From a virus (lineage: Duplodnaviria > Caudoviricetes), in the IMG/VR virus record IMGVR_UViG_3300013426_000025, positions 41,702 through 105,701 of that record: a stretch of DNA of 64,000 nucleotides; one strand, 5' to 3'. The translations under genes and the position numbers were made by a program. Under the pieces are notes generated by a model, which saw nothing but the letters and a program-made list of their open reading frames with translations, was not told the DNA's origin and searched no databases. Below are positions 10,840-49,062 of this stretch, piece after piece (within the stretch, counting starts at the first letter, position 1; each line of letters opens with the position of its first letter).

Positions 10840-10870
10840 CAAAGATACGAAAAATATTTCATATTTGCAA
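10840..10870 (-). promoter_or_regulatory. Bacteroidota-type promoter embedded in an inverted repeat
   Basis: ttgc-aaatatgaaatatttttcg-tatctttg, flanked by the aatccacttgcaaa / tttgcaagtggatt inverted repeat. Confidence 0.75.
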
Positions 10871-21283: not shown

Positions 21284-21314
21284 CAAAGTTATATAAAAAG
21301 ATTGAATCCTACAA
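21284..21314 (-). promoter_or_regulatory. Bacteroidota-type promoter for the capsid operon
   Basis: ttgt-aggattcaatctttttata-taactttg. Confidence 0.75.
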
Positions 21315-26799: not shown

Positions 26800-26830
26800 C
26801 AAAGGTATGAAAAATAATTGATACATACAA
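26800..26830 (-). promoter_or_regulatory. Bacteroidota-type promoter
   Basis: ttgt-atgtatcaattatttttca-tacctttg. Confidence 0.75.
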
Positions 26831-34860: not shown

Positions 34861-34891
34861 CAAAATTACATAAAATTTTTCATTTACACAA
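34861..34891 (-). promoter_or_regulatory. Bacteroidota-type promoter upstream of the portal gene
   Basis: ttgt-gtaaatgaaaaattttatg-taattttg. Confidence 0.7.
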
Positions 34892-40244: not shown

Positions 40245-40248
40245 TTAG

Positions 40249-40322
40249 TGACTCCTAAAGGACTCGAACCTTTGACCCACAGCTTAGAAGGCTGTTGCTC
40301 TATCCAACTGAGCTAAGGAGCC
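40249..40322 (-). tRNA. tRNA-Arg(TCT)
   Basis: GGCTCCTTAGCTCAGTTGGATAGAGCA-ACAGC-CTTCTAA-GCTGT...GGTTCGAGTCC. Confidence 0.9.
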
Positions 40323-40396: not shown

Positions 40397-40427
40397 CAAA
40401 GGTAATACAAATATTTGATATATGCAA
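40397..40427 (-). promoter_or_regulatory. Bacteroidota-type promoter for the tRNA cluster/terminase operon
   Basis: ttgc-atatatcaaatatttgtat-tacctttg. Confidence 0.8.
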
Positions 40428-42814: not shown

Positions 42815-43026
42815 AATCCTAACTTTCTTAATATTCTATTTCTCTTTTCTTTATCCTTAAAGTACCCCACATACTTACCTTTAGGTTCCTCTAAATTATT
42901 TGCTGCATGATACTTATTACTTACAGGTAATGGTTTTATTCTTGTATACTCATACTTCCTATCATACTCTATAGAAGTACAACAATAACCATCTCCTTCA
43001 ATCAATTTAATCCTGTATCTTATCAT
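42754..43026 (-). CDS. Hypothetical protein
   Basis: 90 aa ORF packed in the operon. Confidence 0.45.
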   Translation of the reverse strand: MIRYRIKLIEGDGYCCTSIEYDRKYEYTRIKPLPVSNKYHAANNLEEPKGKYVGYFKDKEKRNRILRKLGLWIDKKHIGMNSQCMKKQNT

Positions 43027-43348
43027 ATAATCCTTGTTTTAAAAGTAATGCAAATCCTCTACCTAATGTTTCTACTAATGGTTCGTTACCATTCTCTTCA
43101 ATAAACTGAAATGTACATAAAATAGCATGTACAAATTCATGTAGTACTATAGTTTGAATTTCAAAATCTGGCATATCTTCACCCTTCTCATTCACTAAAG
43201 AAACAATAATATCTTTAGTACTACCATTATGCCAACCATCACAAAATTCATTAGGGTCATTATCTATCTTATCTCTTGTAAAGTGTACCTTATATACACT
43301 ACCAAAGACTTCAATTTCAAAATCTTTCCATTCTCTTTTCTTCTCCAT
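43007..43348 (-). CDS. Zincin-like metalloprotease
   Basis: IVLHEFVHAIL (HExxH) with a downstream NEPLVE Glu. Confidence 0.7.
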   Translation of the reverse strand: MEKKREWKDFEIEVFGSVYKVHFTRDKIDNDPNEFCDGWHNGSTKDIIVSLVNEKGEDMPDFEIQTIVLHEFVHAILCTFQFIEENGNEPLVETLGRGFALLLKQGLYDKIQD

Positions 43349-43369
43349 ATCTTATATTTTTACTTACTT

Positions 43370-43800
43370 CACATTTTGACACAGTAATGTGCTATGATGA
43401 GAGTATATCTAAAAGATTAAAACTAAGTTATCAAGTATTACTTTACAACTTAAATCATCAAATAACTTTATTCAATATCCTTTATTGAAGTTTTGATATA
43501 GTAATCCCTTAGAGTGGAACCCTAACTTATTGCAAATCAATGAGTTGTGTTTCACTCTCACCTTGCCATCACTGGTAGGTCTATCTATAAATCTTGAATA
43601 GTGGCGGTTAATACTTCCCTAAAGACTCTTTACCCTCAACCCTTTCTCAGACTAATTGGTGAGTCACACTATTCTTGTATCTATAGACTGTTTTGACAGA
43701 GGGTTGATAACTAAAGTGCCCTCTTAAGGCCTCATTCTTTTACCTATTAAGTAGTGATAAGGCGATATACTGACTTAGTCATATCAGTAGTCTATTCATT
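43370..43800 (-). ncRNA. Candidate large structured ncRNA A
   Basis: No ORF of 60 aa or more; starts just after promoter 43811-43841; many stems (ATAGACT/AGTCTAT, GCCTTAT/ATGAGGC, GAATAGTG/CACTATTC, TCAACCCT/AGGGTTGA, AGAGTG/CACTCT). Confidence 0.5.
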
Positions 43801-43810
43801 AAAAACTATG

Positions 43811-43841
43811 CAAAGATAGTAAAAATATTTGATATATGCAA
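43811..43841 (-). promoter_or_regulatory. Bacteroidota-type promoter
   Basis: ttgc-atatatcaaatatttttac-tatctttg. Confidence 0.8.
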
Positions 43842-43879
43842 GTACTAATGTAAAATACTTAACAATTTTAATATAGTAA

Positions 43880-44170
43880 AGGTAAGACTAAATTTAAATC
43901 AGGGCTCTAGTATGTAGGGATTGCTCCCTACATACTTAAACAATTTGATGGTTAAAGCATCAATAAGACACCGCTTCCATTACCCCTTAGCCTTTCACCC
44001 TTAGCTGGGAGGTGTTTTACATGTCCTCACATACACTTTTTACATGGTCCAACATGGGTCTGTCCTCTTTTCCTTGATAATTGTTCTCAGGGTTCTTATT
44101 CCCACTTTCCCCTTTAATGCAGGTAAATGTTTAGCCCACAGGTTGCTCTCTTTTCCTTGATATAATCTCA
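43880..44170 (-). ncRNA. Candidate structured ncRNA B with internal direct repeat
   Basis: Follows promoter 44174-44204; TATCAAGGAAAAGAG occurs twice; ends in a perfect hairpin agtatgtaggga-gcaa-tccctacatact; no ORF. Confidence 0.45.
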
Positions 44171-44173
44171 GTG

Positions 44174-44204
44174 CAAAGGTAATATATTTATCTGATATAT
44201 ACAA
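44174..44204 (-). promoter_or_regulatory. Bacteroidota-type promoter (outermost late promoter)
   Basis: ttgt-atatatcagataaatatat-tacctttg. Confidence 0.75.
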
Positions 44205-44330
44205 TAGAAATAATAAAATTGTAATAGGTACAAAAAATTTTTTTTATTTTATTTTTTTTGAAATTTTTTTATATTTATGAAAGTTGGAGAATTTTTTCTA
44301 TATTTATAAAAGCGAGGGATAATCCCCCTA

Positions 44331-44655
44331 CACACCACCCCTTCCATATTTTGATGGGTCTATTCCCCCCATTTGTACTATTATGAAATGTGATGCTGGT
44401 GACCATTGTGTTATCTGTGCATTTCAAGATAGTTGTCCATTGTATGATGAGTATATAGACTACCGTCTTGAAATGTACAATGAAAGTGTGTCAGATGCTT
44501 ATTAGTGTCTGACATACTTTAATCAATAAATCTCCACACCACTTCTCCTATATTTTGATGTGGTTATATTGTGTAGTATAAATAATGTAGCACTTACATT
44601 GTGTGTTACATTATCTAATCAATAAATCTCCACACCACTTTGGTTATATTTTGAT
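44331..44655 (+). repeat. Three direct repeats CACACCAC-N7-ATATTTTGAT
   Basis: Copies at about 44331-44355, 44521-44559 and 44617-44655; the last two share AATCAATAAATCTCCACACCACTT. Confidence 0.8.
44383..44505 (+). CDS. 40-aa Cys-rich microprotein
   Basis: MKCDAGDHCVICAFQDSCPLYDEYIDYRLEMYNESVSDAY*; lies after repeat 1 and ends in a hairpin; below the ORF-track cutoff. Confidence 0.45.
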   Translation: MKCDAGDHCVICAFQDSCPLYDEYIDYRLEMYNESVSDAY

Positions 44656-44741
44656 ATTAGGATTTTGTGGAATTTACCCAGTCACAAAGTCTATTATAAC
44701 AATTGGGTACATGCTACTATAATAGAGAGTAGTGAATTACT

Positions 44742-45056
44742 ATGGCTGCAACAAACATTAAAGAGCAGTGGTCATTGCGAGAGTGGTGCAGAATGTACGG
44801 TACCACATTTACCAGAGCACCATTCACTAACAAAGAAACAGGAGAGAAATTCAACTCACTTGTCTGGAGCCACAATGGTGGTCTTATCTTTGTTAATTTC
44901 TCTCAAAATCTTGGTGAGTTGAATAACAAGGAAATGAGAGAATTGAAGGAGCAACTGTCTGTCTACCAAGTAGTTAAGGAGTCTGGTGAAATGGGATTTT
45001 CACTTGGCAAAACAGGCTCCATTAACGGCACAGAAGAGTCTCTGGACTTTGACTAA
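44742..45056 (+). CDS. Early hypothetical protein
   Basis: 104 aa, FTNKETGEKFNSL..VNFSQNLGEL; first long ORF after the repeats; followed by a terminator. Confidence 0.7.
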   Translation: MAATNIKEQWSLREWCRMYGTTFTRAPFTNKETGEKFNSLVWSHNGGLIFVNFSQNLGELNNKEMRELKEQLSVYQVVKESGEMGFSLGKTGSINGTEESLDFD

Positions 45057-45072
45057 TCTCTCCAAGAATCAA

Positions 45073-45115
45073 ACTATCTATCCATACAATTTGTGTGGGT
45101 AGATAGTACTTTTAT
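45073..45115 (+). terminator. Intrinsic terminator
   Basis: actatctatccatac-aattt-gtgtgggtagatagt followed by actttt. Confidence 0.6.
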
Positions 45116-45736
45116 TCAGTAAACCATTGTATTTATCCTTGTGGTGCAGGCTAACCATTACAATGATTTACTGATTTTAACAATAAGTGTTCATAGGGCA
45201 AGCACTTTCAAAACAACCTATGCTGGATTCCGCTAGTGTGCTAGGACCTTTAACAGTGGGGAACCTGTGGTTAAACTGTTACTTAAACCAAGTCTCATAA
45301 AGTTAGTGGAGAGACTCTTTTGCTAGTTATGCTGTATAAACTAGTGAGGTCATTAGACCAAATGTCATATAGCAGTGACATCATGCAGTGAAGAGACTAG
45401 GCTGCATTTTAACACTCCTTGCAACGAGTCTTGTGGAGTATAAATCAGGAAAGACACGTATCTATTATTAATTTCTTTTAATAGTTTTCTTTGTAGATAG
45501 ACCAAACTGAGTCATTCTCAGCATGAATATTTAAAGTAAAACTATTACTTATATAGAATAAGTTAAAACACGATAGGGTCATTGTAAGTTCGACTCTTAC
45601 AACCTCTTAGAGATATATAATAGTTCTAGACACCATTATATATTGCTCAGATGAGTAAAGTGGATGACGGTTCGTCACTTATTCTATTCTTTACTTATAA
45701 GGGATTGGTTTCCCTTATAGGTTCTAAGTAAATAAT

Positions 45737-45997
45737 ATGATGTTTAACTTACAAGGTGATACTTTGGAAATAATACTTCCACAAGGTCACACTATGTCAG
45801 AATTGAACACCATGGCTAAAGCAGAGTTATCTGCATTGATTAAAGAAGGTCAATTCTTCGGAAAAGACATCAAAATCAATGGTAAATGTACTACTGCAAT
45901 GGCTATTCTTTTAGGGCATGAACTTGCACATGTATGTAAGAGTGTAAGTATCTTTGACCCTAAAGAGAATACCTATGTCATGTGTGTACAACATTGA
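45737..45997 (+). CDS. csx3: Csx3/Crn3 ring nuclease-like protein (candidate anti-CRISPR)
   Basis: GKDIKINGK..LLGHELAHVCKSVSIFDPK..YVMCVQH matches the Csx3 pattern (G-x-v-isG...aHxxxH...vavyDP[RK]...vvvxsH) as I recall it. Confidence 0.6.
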   Translation: MMFNLQGDTLEIILPQGHTMSELNTMAKAELSALIKEGQFFGKDIKINGKCTTAMAILLGHELAHVCKSVSIFDPKENTYVMCVQH

Positions 45998-46082
45998 TAT
46001 AGCACTGAGCAAGACTCGGAGTAACTATACTTGGCAACAGAAAATAGTTTTTTATTATTAACAACTAAACAACAATACAATT

Positions 46083-46433
46083 ATGAAAACAACAATATTC
46101 GTAGTAAATGAGTATTTTAATGATGTAAATACTCAGATTGCCTTCACTGATAAGGAGGAAGCAAAAAAATATATCAAAGAAAGACAAAAATTCTTTGATG
46201 AAATAGATATGCTGTACAGAGAACATGACAGTCTGTCTTTTGTACTTCCTGTATTATCTATTATCGAAATGCCACTACATGGTATTGAGATTATCAGAAA
46301 GGCTGCTATAGAAGATTATCTTAATTGCAGAAAAATGTGGGAGGATTATTTAGCAAGTAACATTGAAGATGATGAATTTGTTGATAATCTCAACAACGAT
46401 TTAGATGAACTTCTAAATAATAAGAACTCCTAA
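46083..46433 (+). CDS. Early hypothetical protein
   Basis: 116 aa, A-rich leader. Confidence 0.65.
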   Translation: MKTTIFVVNEYFNDVNTQIAFTDKEEAKKYIKERQKFFDEIDMLYREHDSLSFVLPVLSIIEMPLHGIEIIRKAAIEDYLNCRKMWEDYLASNIEDDEFVDNLNNDLDELLNNKNS

Positions 46434-46486
46434 GCAAGAGTATAAACTGCTTATTTTTAATTATTAACTAATAAAACAATACAACA

Positions 46487-46708
46487 ATGAAACAGGGAAA
46501 AACAGTGCTCGGAGACACTATAATCCTCCGTAAAGAACAAGTACTGATAGTAGGTGAAAATCATTTTCAAACCTATTCGTTTCCTAACAATGAACTCGCT
46601 AAAGAGTTCTATAATAGAAAATGTATGCACCCTAAAAGAGGTAGAAAACCTAATAGGGTAAGAGAATGTGCTGTTGTTTATTATAATCAATTAATCATAC
46701 AATTATGA
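46487..46708 (+). CDS. Early hypothetical protein
   Basis: 73 aa, A-rich leader. Confidence 0.55.
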   Translation: MKQGKTVLGDTIILRKEQVLIVGENHFQTYSFPNNELAKEFYNRKCMHPKRGRKPNRVRECAVVYYNQLIIQL

Positions 46709-46896
46709 TAATCAACAATTATCTCAATAAAAGAACAAATTGTCTTCGCACTCTTTCAATAGAGTGTGAGGACAATAATATTGATATTGACCTTATAATA
46801 AAACATAAGGGATTTGAGAAATTGAATACATTAAACTTGAATAAAATAGAAGCAAAGAGTTTGATGTATTCTTTAATGGAGATTTTTGACCAATGA
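46705..46896 (+). CDS. Early hypothetical protein
   Basis: 63 aa, ATGA-coupled. Confidence 0.55.
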   Translation: MIINNYLNKRTNCLRTLSIECEDNNIDIDLIIKHKGFEKLNTLNLNKIEAKSLMYSLMEIFDQ

Positions 46897-47123
46897 ATAA
46901 ACCAATGAATAAACTTAAATTAGTATATAGTGCCATAGCATTTTATGGCACTATATTATTATTTTTTATGTGGCTATTATGTGTAGCACCTATTTTAGAT
47001 GTGGGTGATACATATTTAGCACTCATACTGACAATATCATTACTTATATGTGTCTTCATTAATATAAAAATATATGATGAAGATACATACAATAAAATAC
47101 TACCAAAATGGTTCAATAAATAA
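46893..47123 (+). CDS. Small two-TM membrane protein
   Basis: 76 aa, two hydrophobic helices, ATGA-coupled. Confidence 0.6.
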   Translation: MNKPMNKLKLVYSAIAFYGTILLFFMWLLCVAPILDVGDTYLALILTISLLICVFINIKIYDEDTYNKILPKWFNK

Positions 47124-47211
47124 GCGATTGAATTTTTGTTAGTTTGTTAGACATAATTTTTATTTTAGTGGTTATTCAACTATAAGAATCTGTGACAGAC
47201 CTTATAGTTAT

Positions 47212-47283
47212 GCTCCTATAGTTCAATGGACAGAACAACATCCTTCTAAGATGAAAATCTTGGTTCGATTCCAAGTAGGGGTA
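47212..47283 (+). tRNA. tRNA-Arg(TCT), second copy
   Basis: GCTCCTATAGTTCAATGGACAGAACA-ACATC-CTTCTAA-GATGA..GGTTCGATTCC..TAGGGGTA. Confidence 0.8.
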
Positions 47284-47472
47284 CAATGTATTTTTCATGT
47301 TTTTTGTTGTTTTATTTGTTAATTATTTACTTGTAATCTAATCTATACCTACAATCTTAACTCAAAAGCACAAGGTTGCTAAATAGTCTCTGTTTATATA
47401 TTAGTTTTTTGATTAGCGTTCCTATTATATATTCAAACTATTTAGCATTATCCTTAATAGATTAGATGAACA

Positions 47473-47521
47473 GACAGTACTATGGTTAGTATAATAAAGG
47501 TTCGATTCCTTTATACTGTCC
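47473..47521 (+). ncRNA. tRNA-like minihelix (acceptor stem and T arm only)
   Basis: GACAGTA/TACTGTC 7-bp stem stacked on TAAAGG-TTCGATT-CCTTTA; only 15 nt replace the D and anticodon arms. Confidence 0.5.
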
Positions 47522-47778
47522 TTTTAGTGGTTTATGTTGGTTAATATGAAAAACATTATTTAGACTTATGTGGGAATAACATTAACACACCCGATTGATA
47601 GAGAGTTGTATAAGAATTTATATGTATTGTCTATAAAAGTGTAATGTAGGTCATTAATGATTCACCTTTAATAATAAAAATATAAGGTAAAGAGAAAACT
47701 TAATCAACTTTCATTACTTTATAAAGTATATTATGCTATGAATCATAATAGTACAAGAGTGATTACTTGTACTATTCT

Positions 47779-47864
47779 ACCTCTGTGTTGGAATCAGAAG
47801 ACAAGCAAGTCTTAAAAACTTGTGGTCAGAATTGACCGTGTGGGTGCAAGTCCCATCAGAGGTA
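47779..47864 (+). tRNA. tRNA-Leu(TAA), class II, non-canonical D/T loops
   Basis: ACCTCTG/CAGAGGT acceptor stem, CAAGT-CTTAAAA-ACTTG anticodon arm, long variable arm, T loop TGCAAGT. Confidence 0.7.
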
Positions 47865-47894
47865 CAAATTATTAACTTATTAAATAATAAAAGT

Positions 47895-48152
47895 ATGAAA
47901 GAAAAGAAAAAGATTTACAAATTGTATTCTCAATCTCATAGTATTGGGAATCTGTCAATGGAAAAAGAGGCTTATTATTCTAATAAAGAAACTGCAATAC
48001 AAGAATATAAGGCTCTTAAGAAAGCAATTCTTGATGAGTTTGATAAAGAACATCCAACTATTATTGAAAAGAATAATAATTTCAAACTCTTTAATGGTGC
48101 TATTAATAGTTGGATAGAAATAGATTTAAGTGAAATTGAATTATCAAATTAA
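47895..48152 (+). CDS. Hypothetical protein
   Basis: Start moved to MKEKKK because the longer start overlaps tRNA-Leu. Confidence 0.6.
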   Translation: MKEKKKIYKLYSQSHSIGNLSMEKEAYYSNKETAIQEYKALKKAILDEFDKEHPTIIEKNNNFKLFNGAINSWIEIDLSEIELSN

Positions 48153-48159
48153 TTATTTT

Positions 48160-49062
48160 ATGGGAGTAGAAATAAATAAAAAAGAATTAATAAAATTACC
48201 ATTTGTTAATTGTTTTTGTAACTATTTTGTTGATGAAAGCAATGTTTATGATGCAAATGGTCGTGTATTAGTCAAAACAATTAGAAAAGAGAATAATAGG
48301 AATAGACTTTATATTAATCTCAAAAAGGCTAACGGTGAATATAAACAAATTAAATTGAAATCCTTAATTGTTTTAGGACATCTTTTTTCTAAATACAATA
48401 AAATAGATTTGGATTTTTACAGTAACAAACTTTTTGAAGGGGAACGTAGTGGTAGATTTGAAATATATCATAAAGATTCTGACCCAACAAATTGTGCATT
48501 TTCTAATCTTAGAATAATAGATAAAGTAAAGAACATTACTGTAACTCAAGATACACAATATGATATTGGTATTTTACATAATTTTGAGTACAAGAAACGT
48601 AAAGAAAGGAAGAAAAAGATAGAAGAAGAGGAACAAATTACACCAATGGTTGAAGATAATAAACTAGAGAGTGTTGATGTAAACAAACCTTGTAAAGAAG
48701 AAGAACATGACAAACTGTTGCCTCTGTATTATATCAATGCCAATCATGAGATTAAGCAAGTCAGTACAAAAGAAATCACTGATGCTTTTCCATTTATCTT
48801 TGCAGATGAACAAGACGCTAAAATGTTTACATCAATGATTGTTCTTAGGTTACTTTATAAGAATTGGAAAGAAGGAAAAGATTTAATTGGGGGAAATATT
48901 CAATATAACCCAAAATATAAGCGTAATCATTGGATTATAGGGTCAGCAACAAATAGTCCTCTTAGTAATCTATTTGCAGGCACATTAGCCTTTTCTGATA
49001 AAGAATCTTGTAAGAAATTCATTCAAGAAAATAAAGAATGGTTAAACGGACTACTTGGATAA
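48160..49062 (+). CDS. HNH-endonuclease-like N-terminal domain fused to a phage accessory domain
   Basis: IYHKDSDPTNCAFSNLRII; C-terminal LAFSDKESCKKF resembles the protein at 51344-51778. Confidence 0.55.
   Translation: MGVEINKKELIKLPFVNCFCNYFVDESNVYDANGRVLVKTIRKENNRNRLYINLKKANGEYKQIKLKSLIVLGHLFSKYNKIDLDFYSNKLFEGERSGRFEIYHKDSDPTNCAFSNLRIIDKVKNITVTQDTQYDIGILHNFEYKKRKERKKKIEEEEQITPMVEDNKLESVDVNKPCKEEEHDKLLPLYYINANHEIKQVSTKEITDAFPFIFADEQDAKMFTSMIVLRLLYKNWKEGKDLIGGNIQYNPKYKRNHWIIGSATNSPLSNLFAGTLAFSDKESCKKFIQENKEWLNGLLG

Follow-up and report, generated by a model that had tools for sequence, protein, structure and literature searches.

A conserved structured RNA upstream of the tRNA array and terminase gene in crAss-like phages

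The region at positions 43370-43841 of the window, which here denotes the whole 64,000-nucleotide stretch of DNA that was analysed, contains on its minus strand a genuine folded-RNA gene without an ORF, extending from approximately 43803 to 43495. The covariance model (CM) R1 matches this structured RNA (43495-43803, minus strand; about 309 nt) over 43554-43732 of the same strand (170.8 bits, E = 1e-42), and the RNA represents a previously uncatalogued family of about 310 nt. We are nearly certain that the region corresponds to a real and selected RNA structure. The fold is kept by compensatory changes in relatives, thereby indicating selection at the RNA level and arguing against a role at the DNA level. 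A first-pass annotation had proposed a large, promoter-driven, structured non-coding RNA or else a complex leader, and this proposal is supported by the promoter, by most of the helices it listed, and by covariation.

The window comes from an IMG/VR virus record of 105.7 kb, and the phage was identified as crAss-like from its terminase, tail, and SLT-domain genes and from protein matches to Kahnovirus and Kehishuvirus. Genes lie on the minus strand to the left of 43348 and on the plus strand to the right of about 47800. Between these two modules is an ORF-poor stretch of about 4.4 kb with tRNA genes at its flanks; the RNA occupies its left edge, close to the switch in orientation and GC skew at about 44500. 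ARAGORN places the nearest tRNAs at 40248-40322 and 47212-47284. Whether translated with table 11, TAG=Q, or table 4, the interval 43349-43841 contains no ORF above 33 aa, and hidden coding under alternative genetic codes (TAG=Q, TGA=W) was rejected, as neither opened an ORF. GC content is 0.38-0.39 across 43500-43800 versus 0.245-0.30 in the flanks, confirming the earlier description of an ORF-free, GC-richer stretch just past a host-type promoter. The 5' end at 43803 is inferred, lying about 7 nt past the -7 element, and the 3' limit is that of a conserved 3' motif. With this, the length of about 430 nt originally suggested holds only in part: the conserved RNA covers about 310 nt, whereas the remaining 145-nt tail, which reaches the next ORF, is conserved only in the nearest lineage, L004. 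This AU-rich tail (43349-43494, minus strand) contains weak hairpins at 43489-43471 and 43451-43425 followed by a U-rich run, although a terminator scan called no terminator in it, and it is possibly a leaky terminator or a spacer ahead of the next gene. The first downstream ORF (43007-43348, minus strand) encodes a small HExxH protein of 113 aa (phrog_1233) and is followed by a 90-aa ORF and then by a 784-aa SLT-domain protein. A homologue of the small zincin-like HExxH protein is found downstream of the RNA in L023 and upstream of it in crAss001-type phages.

A host-type promoter of the Bacteroidetes sigma-A kind is located at 43811-43841 on the minus strand, where TTG is separated by 20 nt from TATCTTTG. 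Its sequence, TTGCATATATCAAATATTTTTACTATCTTTG (43841-43811), matches the Bacteroidetes -33 TTG / -7 TAnnTTTG consensus, and the -33 TTTG / -7 TAnnTTTG arrangement in 43841-43811 is the consensus of the primary sigma factor in that phylum. Two near-identical 31-mers were found, one at 40427-40397, which precedes tRNA-Arg by about 75 nt, and the other at 44204-44174. When only the 16-nt 5' part of the motif was counted, with up to two mismatches, the window contained seven occurrences versus 0.98 expected. All 14 family members that were examined have a TTG-N18-22-TAnnTTTG promoter ending 55-127 nt ahead of the core, and it was found in every member with enough upstream sequence; the background frequency of this pattern is 0.16 per kb on each strand, which corresponds to 0.019 per 120 nt. 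Host-type promoters belonging to one sequence family (TTGCAnAnATnAAATAnTTTT..TAyCTTTG) also precede tRNAs and several genes of the structural module on the minus strand (40397-40427, 34861-34891, 26800-26830, 21284-21314, 10840-10870, and 1517-1547).

The fold comprises approximately ten helices, with three 5' hairpins followed by a long-range helix around a four-helix core, and it also includes nearly invariant purine-rich core strands, a GNRA-capped hairpin, a variable hairpin, and a single-stranded 3' motif. The minimum free energy (MFE) structure of 43803-43495, computed from the minus strand as a single sequence, already holds the helices listed by the first-pass annotation together with every helix later confirmed. 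At the 5' end, the MFE structure includes hairpin Pa (ACUGA/UCAGU; 43769-43788) and hairpin P0 (GCCUUAU/AUGAGGC; 43729-43763), both on the minus strand, as are all elements described below. Relatives carry a hairpin of other sequence in the place of Pa, and the equivalents of P0 include UUCCAAG/CCUGGAA in L021, UCCCAG/CUGGGA in L025, and CUCCAGAG/CUUUGGAG in L054. Conservation of both hairpins was judged by eye, in the case of Pa without a formal count. Thus, the pairings ACTGA/TCAGT and GCCTTAT/ATGAGGC noted earlier have positional equivalents in relatives, but their sequence is not kept.

Hairpin P1 (AGAGGG/CCCUCU; 43698-43724) exhibits compensatory changes in all seven of its pairs, with 91.5% of cells paired. 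It is followed by P2 (43583-43688), the long-range helix around the central domain, in which GUCUAUAGA (43688-43680) pairs with UUUAUAGAU (43591-43583); all ten pairs are compensatory and 90% are paired. Within it, P3 (43596-43674) joins GAAUAGUG (43674-43667) to CACUAUUC (43603-43596) and is supported by covariation, its 4-bp core being paired in all 26 sequences (100%), where as many as five pair types occur at a single position. P4 (GACUC/GAGUC) and P5 (ACC/GGU) occupy 43624-43665. P4 is 100% paired with all five pairs covarying, and a nearly invariant strand, GGUUGAGGGUAAA (43641-43629), is seen in the alignment of the P4/P5 region. The P6 region (UUUAGGG...UUAACCGCC; 43603-43623) contains a conserved purine-rich strand and a GG/CC mini-helix, with a loop that varies in length among relatives. 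The stem of P7 (ACCU-A-CCA [GUGA] UGG-CA-AGGU; 43560-43580) covaries and is capped by a GNRA tetraloop, which is GUGA, GUAA, GAAA, GCAA, or GGAA in 21 of 26 members. P8 (43511-43558), in which AGAGUG (43558-43553) pairs with CACUCU (43516-43511) around a 36-nt inner hairpin, was 100% paired in the six nearest sequences with compensatory changes in three of six pairs, according to a separate small model that also confirmed P7; a family-wide shuffle test of P8 was uninformative. Finally, the 3' motif CUAAGGGAUUACUAUAUC (43495-43512) follows the family consensus YUARGGGAWWAYUAUA, which almost every member shares, among them Kehishuvirus tikkala, whose RNA differs otherwise. A repeated TARGGGDWWA motif was not enriched across the window.

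Four of the helices listed in the first-pass annotation were therefore confirmed by covariation, namely GAGGG/CCCTC (P1), TCTATAGAT/ATTTATAGA (P2), GAATAGTG/CACTATTC (P3), and AGAGTG/CACTCT (P8), while P4, P5, and the GNRA-capped P7 had not been listed. Two other pairings did not survive comparison. The helix ATAGACT/AGTCTAT competes with the covarying P2, lacks a counterpart in relatives, and is specific to the window. The 8-bp pairing TCAACCCT/AGGGTTGA, suggested as a switch, overlaps P5 and requires AAGGGUUGA, with a G, where most relatives have AAAGGUUGA; it is at best window-specific. The assignment to the minus strand fared better. Frequent G-U pairs (one P2 pair, for instance, is GU in 19 of 26 sequences), together with a loop that is GNRA only on the minus strand (UCAC on the plus), establish this orientation for the RNA.

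The structure was derived by applying RNAalifold to the window and two distant homologues, which yielded 40 pairs, six of them already compensatory. CM R1 was built from these three sequences and describes the central domain, P1 to P7. Across 26 distinct sequences, 92.7% of base-pair cells were paired, versus 63.8% in shuffled and 33%-43% in slid controls, and the covariation score was 0.675 versus 0.197 (shuffled) and 0.04-0.11 (slid). Changes on both sides of a pair were found in 36 of the 40 pairs. Because 23 of the 26 sequences stood outside the derivation of the structure, these values amount to an out-of-sample confirmation. The first-pass annotation had named a lack of conservation and covariation in relatives among the observations that would refute it; both are strongly present. 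The window is itself one of the three seeds, so that its own match is partly by construction, and independent support comes from the covarying 23 non-seed matches. The alignments used for pair counts were fitted to the model and are biased toward the structure, a bias that is limited by the slid controls and the out-of-sample design. A 14-sequence version of this pair analysis preceded the 26-sequence one. A full-length MAFFT alignment of 14 diverse sequences is not structural, and RNAalifold gave no usable result on it. The window also meets the hallmarks of the family, which are the invariant GGYUGAGGGUAAA and ACCGCC strands, a promoter 55-130 nt upstream, and the 3' motif.

Folding energy, by comparison, is weak evidence. 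Its z-score ranged from -1.9 to -2.4 for the minus strand and from -2.4 to -2.8 for the plus strand, only modestly better than shuffled sequences and not strand-specific, so that thermodynamics alone could not decide the matter.

Relatives of the RNA were recovered by several routes. Ten contigs with an identical 113-aa neighbour protein (L005-L014) are 99.6%-100% identical in DNA and carry no information on selection, and L004, a single lineage at 85% identity, extends upstream for no more than 223 nt. A scan of JGI metagenomes with a 20-mer from the block that is conserved in both the window and L004 led to contig L021; here a promoter of the same type precedes a 78%-identical core, which is itself immediately followed by a GH108 lysozyme gene. 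A gapped pattern then led to the IMG/VR contig L022, which is arranged in the same way: it carries lysozyme, exonuclease-like, and SLT genes as well as 21 tRNAs, and its terminase shares 59% identity with that of the window. CM R1 matched 17 of 80 loci fetched by terminase (25-213 bits), each on the terminase strand and 2.9-8.7 kb upstream of the terminase. A 20-nt degenerate pattern of an invariant strand found 52 more IMG/VR stretches, 48 of which are CM matches. Taken together, matches come from about 53 IMG/VR crAss-like contigs, and E-values are 1e-12 to 1e-54 in phages with terminases only 45%-60% identical. In every case, the RNA precedes both the array of phage tRNAs and the terminase gene and shares their strand, and its length from promoter to 3' motif is 241-320 nt in most members with both ends located. 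A model of the 3' domain, R2, reached the nearest clade only.

The carriers belong to a crAss-like clade (Steigviridae, Asinivirinae) that includes crAss001. The L047 copy is 97.5%-98.8% identical to Bacteroides phage crAss001 (MH675552.1:659-984), 25 PhiCrAssBcn isolates, and cr112_1, and the L054 copy is 98.4% identical to cr128_1, a Mahlunavirus. In crAss001 (MH675552.1), the CM core at 788-950 falls within the 318 nt that separate gp2 from gp3, an unannotated gap located ahead of the tRNA array. One copy was found in each of the two complete genomes checked, this genome and crAss001. A blastn search of the region against INPHARED phages returned nothing, and it was the copies of relatives that later matched crAss001 and others. 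Scans with single neighbouring proteins likewise revealed no relatives, the protein database yielding only one 81%-identical cluster. No CM match was found in cr85_1 (Kahnovirus). Kehishuvirus tikkala (OQ198717.1; L016:5340-5690) has the crAss001 locus and promoter with a different RNA body that R1 does not match; at its end, this RNA has comparable AGGG...UUAUUAUAU / AGGGAUAACUAU motifs. Different RNA variants may be interchangeable at this locus.

A widespread bacterial RNA was considered and rejected, as 16 of 18 pattern matches in bacterial genomes are due to chance. The two true members in bacterial assemblies comprise a phage fragment and a copy in a Prevotella MAG from goat caecum, and no further true match was found in about 190 other Bacteroidaceae genomes. 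As bacterial matches are almost all chance or phage, the RNA is essentially phage-borne. The copy in the Prevotella sp. MAG (JAFQGS010000075.1; L165:1257-1451) is a diverged member (40 bits) without a good promoter match, situated between ribE (riboflavin synthase) and purU about 700 nt from a 6S (Bacteroidales-1) RNA gene.

With regard to function, we lean, by no great measure, toward a stable RNA that acts in trans over a leader acting in cis. The discrete size, ends, and stability of the RNA are all inferred, as no expression data are available. We infer that host RNA polymerase produces the RNA, as it does the phage tRNAs, which use the same promoter type, and that the RNA accumulates stably after being cut, in most phages, from the 5' end of a longer transcript, much like the tRNAs embedded in the module. 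The folded RNA would then work in trans, its GNRA loop and invariant G-rich strands being presented to a partner that might be a protein or a pyrimidine-rich RNA, and would not regulate one particular downstream gene. In this phage, transcription would probably read through the AU-rich tail into the peptidase-like and SLT genes. Alternatively, the RNA may be a ribozyme; such catalytic activity is conjectural, and the sole observation bearing on it is the presence of many invariant junction nucleotides and the GNRA loop in the alignment. We suggest, no more than tentatively, that the RNA represents a new functional class, either a ribozyme or the RNA core of a phage or host RNP, and that crAss-like phages need it for productive infection of Bacteroidales. 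In one variant, the RNA could serve as a decoy whose repeated G-rich strands of the AGGG(U/A)AA type bind a host protein or a pyrimidine-rich RNA.

The main competing explanation is that the RNA is the 5' leader of the operon that follows, acting in cis as a riboswitch-like element or attenuator, in control of translation, or as a processive antitermination RNA. In the last form it could modify RNA polymerase as it leaves the promoter, as with HK022 put or the UpxY/NusG-like leaders of Bacteroides. The RNA begins right at the promoter and contains many invariant unpaired nucleotides, as an aptamer would, and in approximately 16 of 24 members an ORF starts 13-57 nt past the 3' motif with no terminator between, which is the expected appearance of a 5' leader too. 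However, tRNAs in these phages are routinely interleaved with ORFs, and such tight spacing is therefore compatible with a processed stable RNA. The ORFs that follow are functionally unrelated between lineages (an HExxH protein, a GH108 lysozyme, and proteins of 49, 126, 150, and 197 aa), so that the criterion of related downstream genes for a gene-specific riboswitch is unmet. Past the RNA, L034 and L092 have an intrinsic terminator and, beyond it, a conserved convergent ORF that is 63% identical between the two; these lineages have no co-directional downstream gene, and thus nothing downstream to regulate. A put-like element would be promoter-proximal, as the RNA is, but would not be expected in L034 and L092 without a co-directional operon. 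The terminator placed just past the RNA and ahead of co-directional genes in L127 and L105 is typical of regulated termination, although in L127, L105, and L032 the terminator or A-run after the RNA is followed by a fresh promoter. No conserved alternative pairing that might serve as an expression platform was found, some members having terminators and others a nearby start codon. The structural module of the window has its own promoters of the same type at 34891, 26830, 24306, 21314, 10870, and 1547; the module thus has promoters besides that of the RNA, and the case for antitermination is weaker as a result. At 250-320 nt and ten helices, the RNA also exceeds almost all riboswitch aptamers. 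We therefore regard a cis-acting leader as possible but rather unlikely.

Two further explanations were considered. The region might act as DNA or as a replication primer at an origin between divergent modules, where a transcript primes or opens the duplex (as with ColE1 RNA II or T4 oriF/oriG). The nearby switch in orientation and GC skew and, in this window, a strong promoter followed by a stretch of about 25% GC are in keeping with such a role, but the compensatory changes, including G-U pairs, and the GNRA loop reflect selection on RNA. In addition, an ORF about 20 nt past the RNA in most relatives leaves no room for an unwinding element, and in crAss001-type phages a co-directional gene lies upstream, so that the RNA is not at the switch point. 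We consider an origin or primer very improbable. It is scarcely conceivable that the region is a non-functional spacer with helices formed by chance, or an unrecognised short coding sequence. The modest folding z-score, of equal size on both strands, would suit a spacer, but both ideas are already refuted by the conservation of the RNA across distant terminases and by compensatory change in nearly every pair, and coding is further contradicted by the absence of any ORF above 33 aa under three genetic codes and by alignment indels that are not multiples of three.

The surroundings of the RNA contain other elements of note. On the minus strand at 43917-44204, a second copy of the promoter (44204-44174) precedes an ORF-free stretch of about 250 nt with 42% GC, which ends at hairpin GUAUGUAGGGAGCAAUCCCUACAUAC (43944-43919), holds a 15-nt direct repeat (AUCAAGGAAAAGAG, twice), and includes several CUAAGGG(G)UAA-like motifs that resemble the 3' motif of the RNA. 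BLAST identified no homologue of this candidate in any fetched locus. An element at 44305-44375, G-rich on the minus strand and C-rich on the plus, is located upstream of the promoters. G-rich blocks that appear similar by eye lie upstream of the RNA promoter in L021, L022, L023, L054, and L032, and no BLAST link joined the element to blocks in the collected loci. The interval 44341-45069 is a hypervariable cassette, in that strains 99.6%-99.9% identical elsewhere carry unalignable alternatives with differing small ORFs of 104, 115/116, or 126 aa.

Crassvirales are the most abundant viruses of the human gut, and their non-coding RNAs beyond tRNAs are essentially undescribed. The covariation support obtained here is comparable to that of curated Rfam families. 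The function of the RNA is open to bench tests, as it occurs in the cultured crAss001 and in 25 further phage isolates on Bacteroides intestinalis, a culturable host, and a strand-specific RNA-seq time course of crAss001 already exists (PMC8375218).

The statement in the first-pass annotation that the RNA fits no known family was borne out. At gathering thresholds, cmscan of the whole window against Rfam 15 returned tRNAs only, and with E up to 10 over 43000-48200 it returned nothing inside 43370-43841. The families left unmatched include ROOL, GOLLD, OLE, raiA, 6S/Bacteroidales-1, RNase P, tmRNA, SRP, Y RNA, riboswitches, and small ribozymes. ARAGORN found no tRNA or tmRNA in the RNA region, and the RNA is unannotated in GenBank records. 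No published description of a crAss non-coding RNA was found, although the 3161 unnamed motifs of PMC8040213 were not compared.

The genome of phage crAss001 includes a gene for a TROVE (Ro60-like) protein, for which no RNA partner is known (PMC8375218). The bacterial Y RNAs (YrlA), which are bound by Ro60/Rsr, differ from the crAss RNA, which matches no Y RNA or YrlA family in Rfam and lacks a family-wide terminal stem formed from its 5' and 3' ends. TROVE/Ro60 was rejected as an obligate partner, given that PF05731 was found only in crAss001 and is absent from this genome, cr128_1, cr85_1, and tikkala, the first two of which carry the RNA. The leaders of HK022 put and of the NusG-paralogue systems UpxY/LoaP resemble the crAss RNA in lying just past a promoter at the head of a one-directional module, and in that the identity of the downstream gene is irrelevant. 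However, put is only about 70 nt with two stem-loops, and the crAss RNA also stands alone with a terminator and a convergent gene, which is unexpected for a cis-acting antiterminator such as put.

The role of large structured phage RNAs near tRNAs (GOLLD, ROOL, and T4 rnaC/rnaD) remains unsolved, and the crAss RNA adds a mid-sized case. The T4 rnaC and rnaD (species 1 and 2) are stable phage RNAs of unknown function encoded alongside tRNA genes, and the polymerase and processing enzymes that produce them are those of the host. They are smaller than the crAss RNA and unrelated in sequence, and processing of the latter is only inferred. ROOL (RF03087; about 580 nt) and GOLLD (RF01998; about 800 nt) are both longer than the crAss RNA (about 310 nt), show no sequence or structure match to it with cmscan at E up to 10, and occur in phages of Firmicutes and also in bacteria, whereas the crAss RNA occurs in Crassvirales of Bacteroidales. 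The comparison with these two RNAs drawn in the first-pass annotation thus does not extend to homology, but does apply to context near tRNA genes. Like the crAss RNA, ROOL and GOLLD are structured phage non-coding RNAs of unknown function, often encoded beside tRNA genes, with many covarying helices and conserved junction nucleotides.
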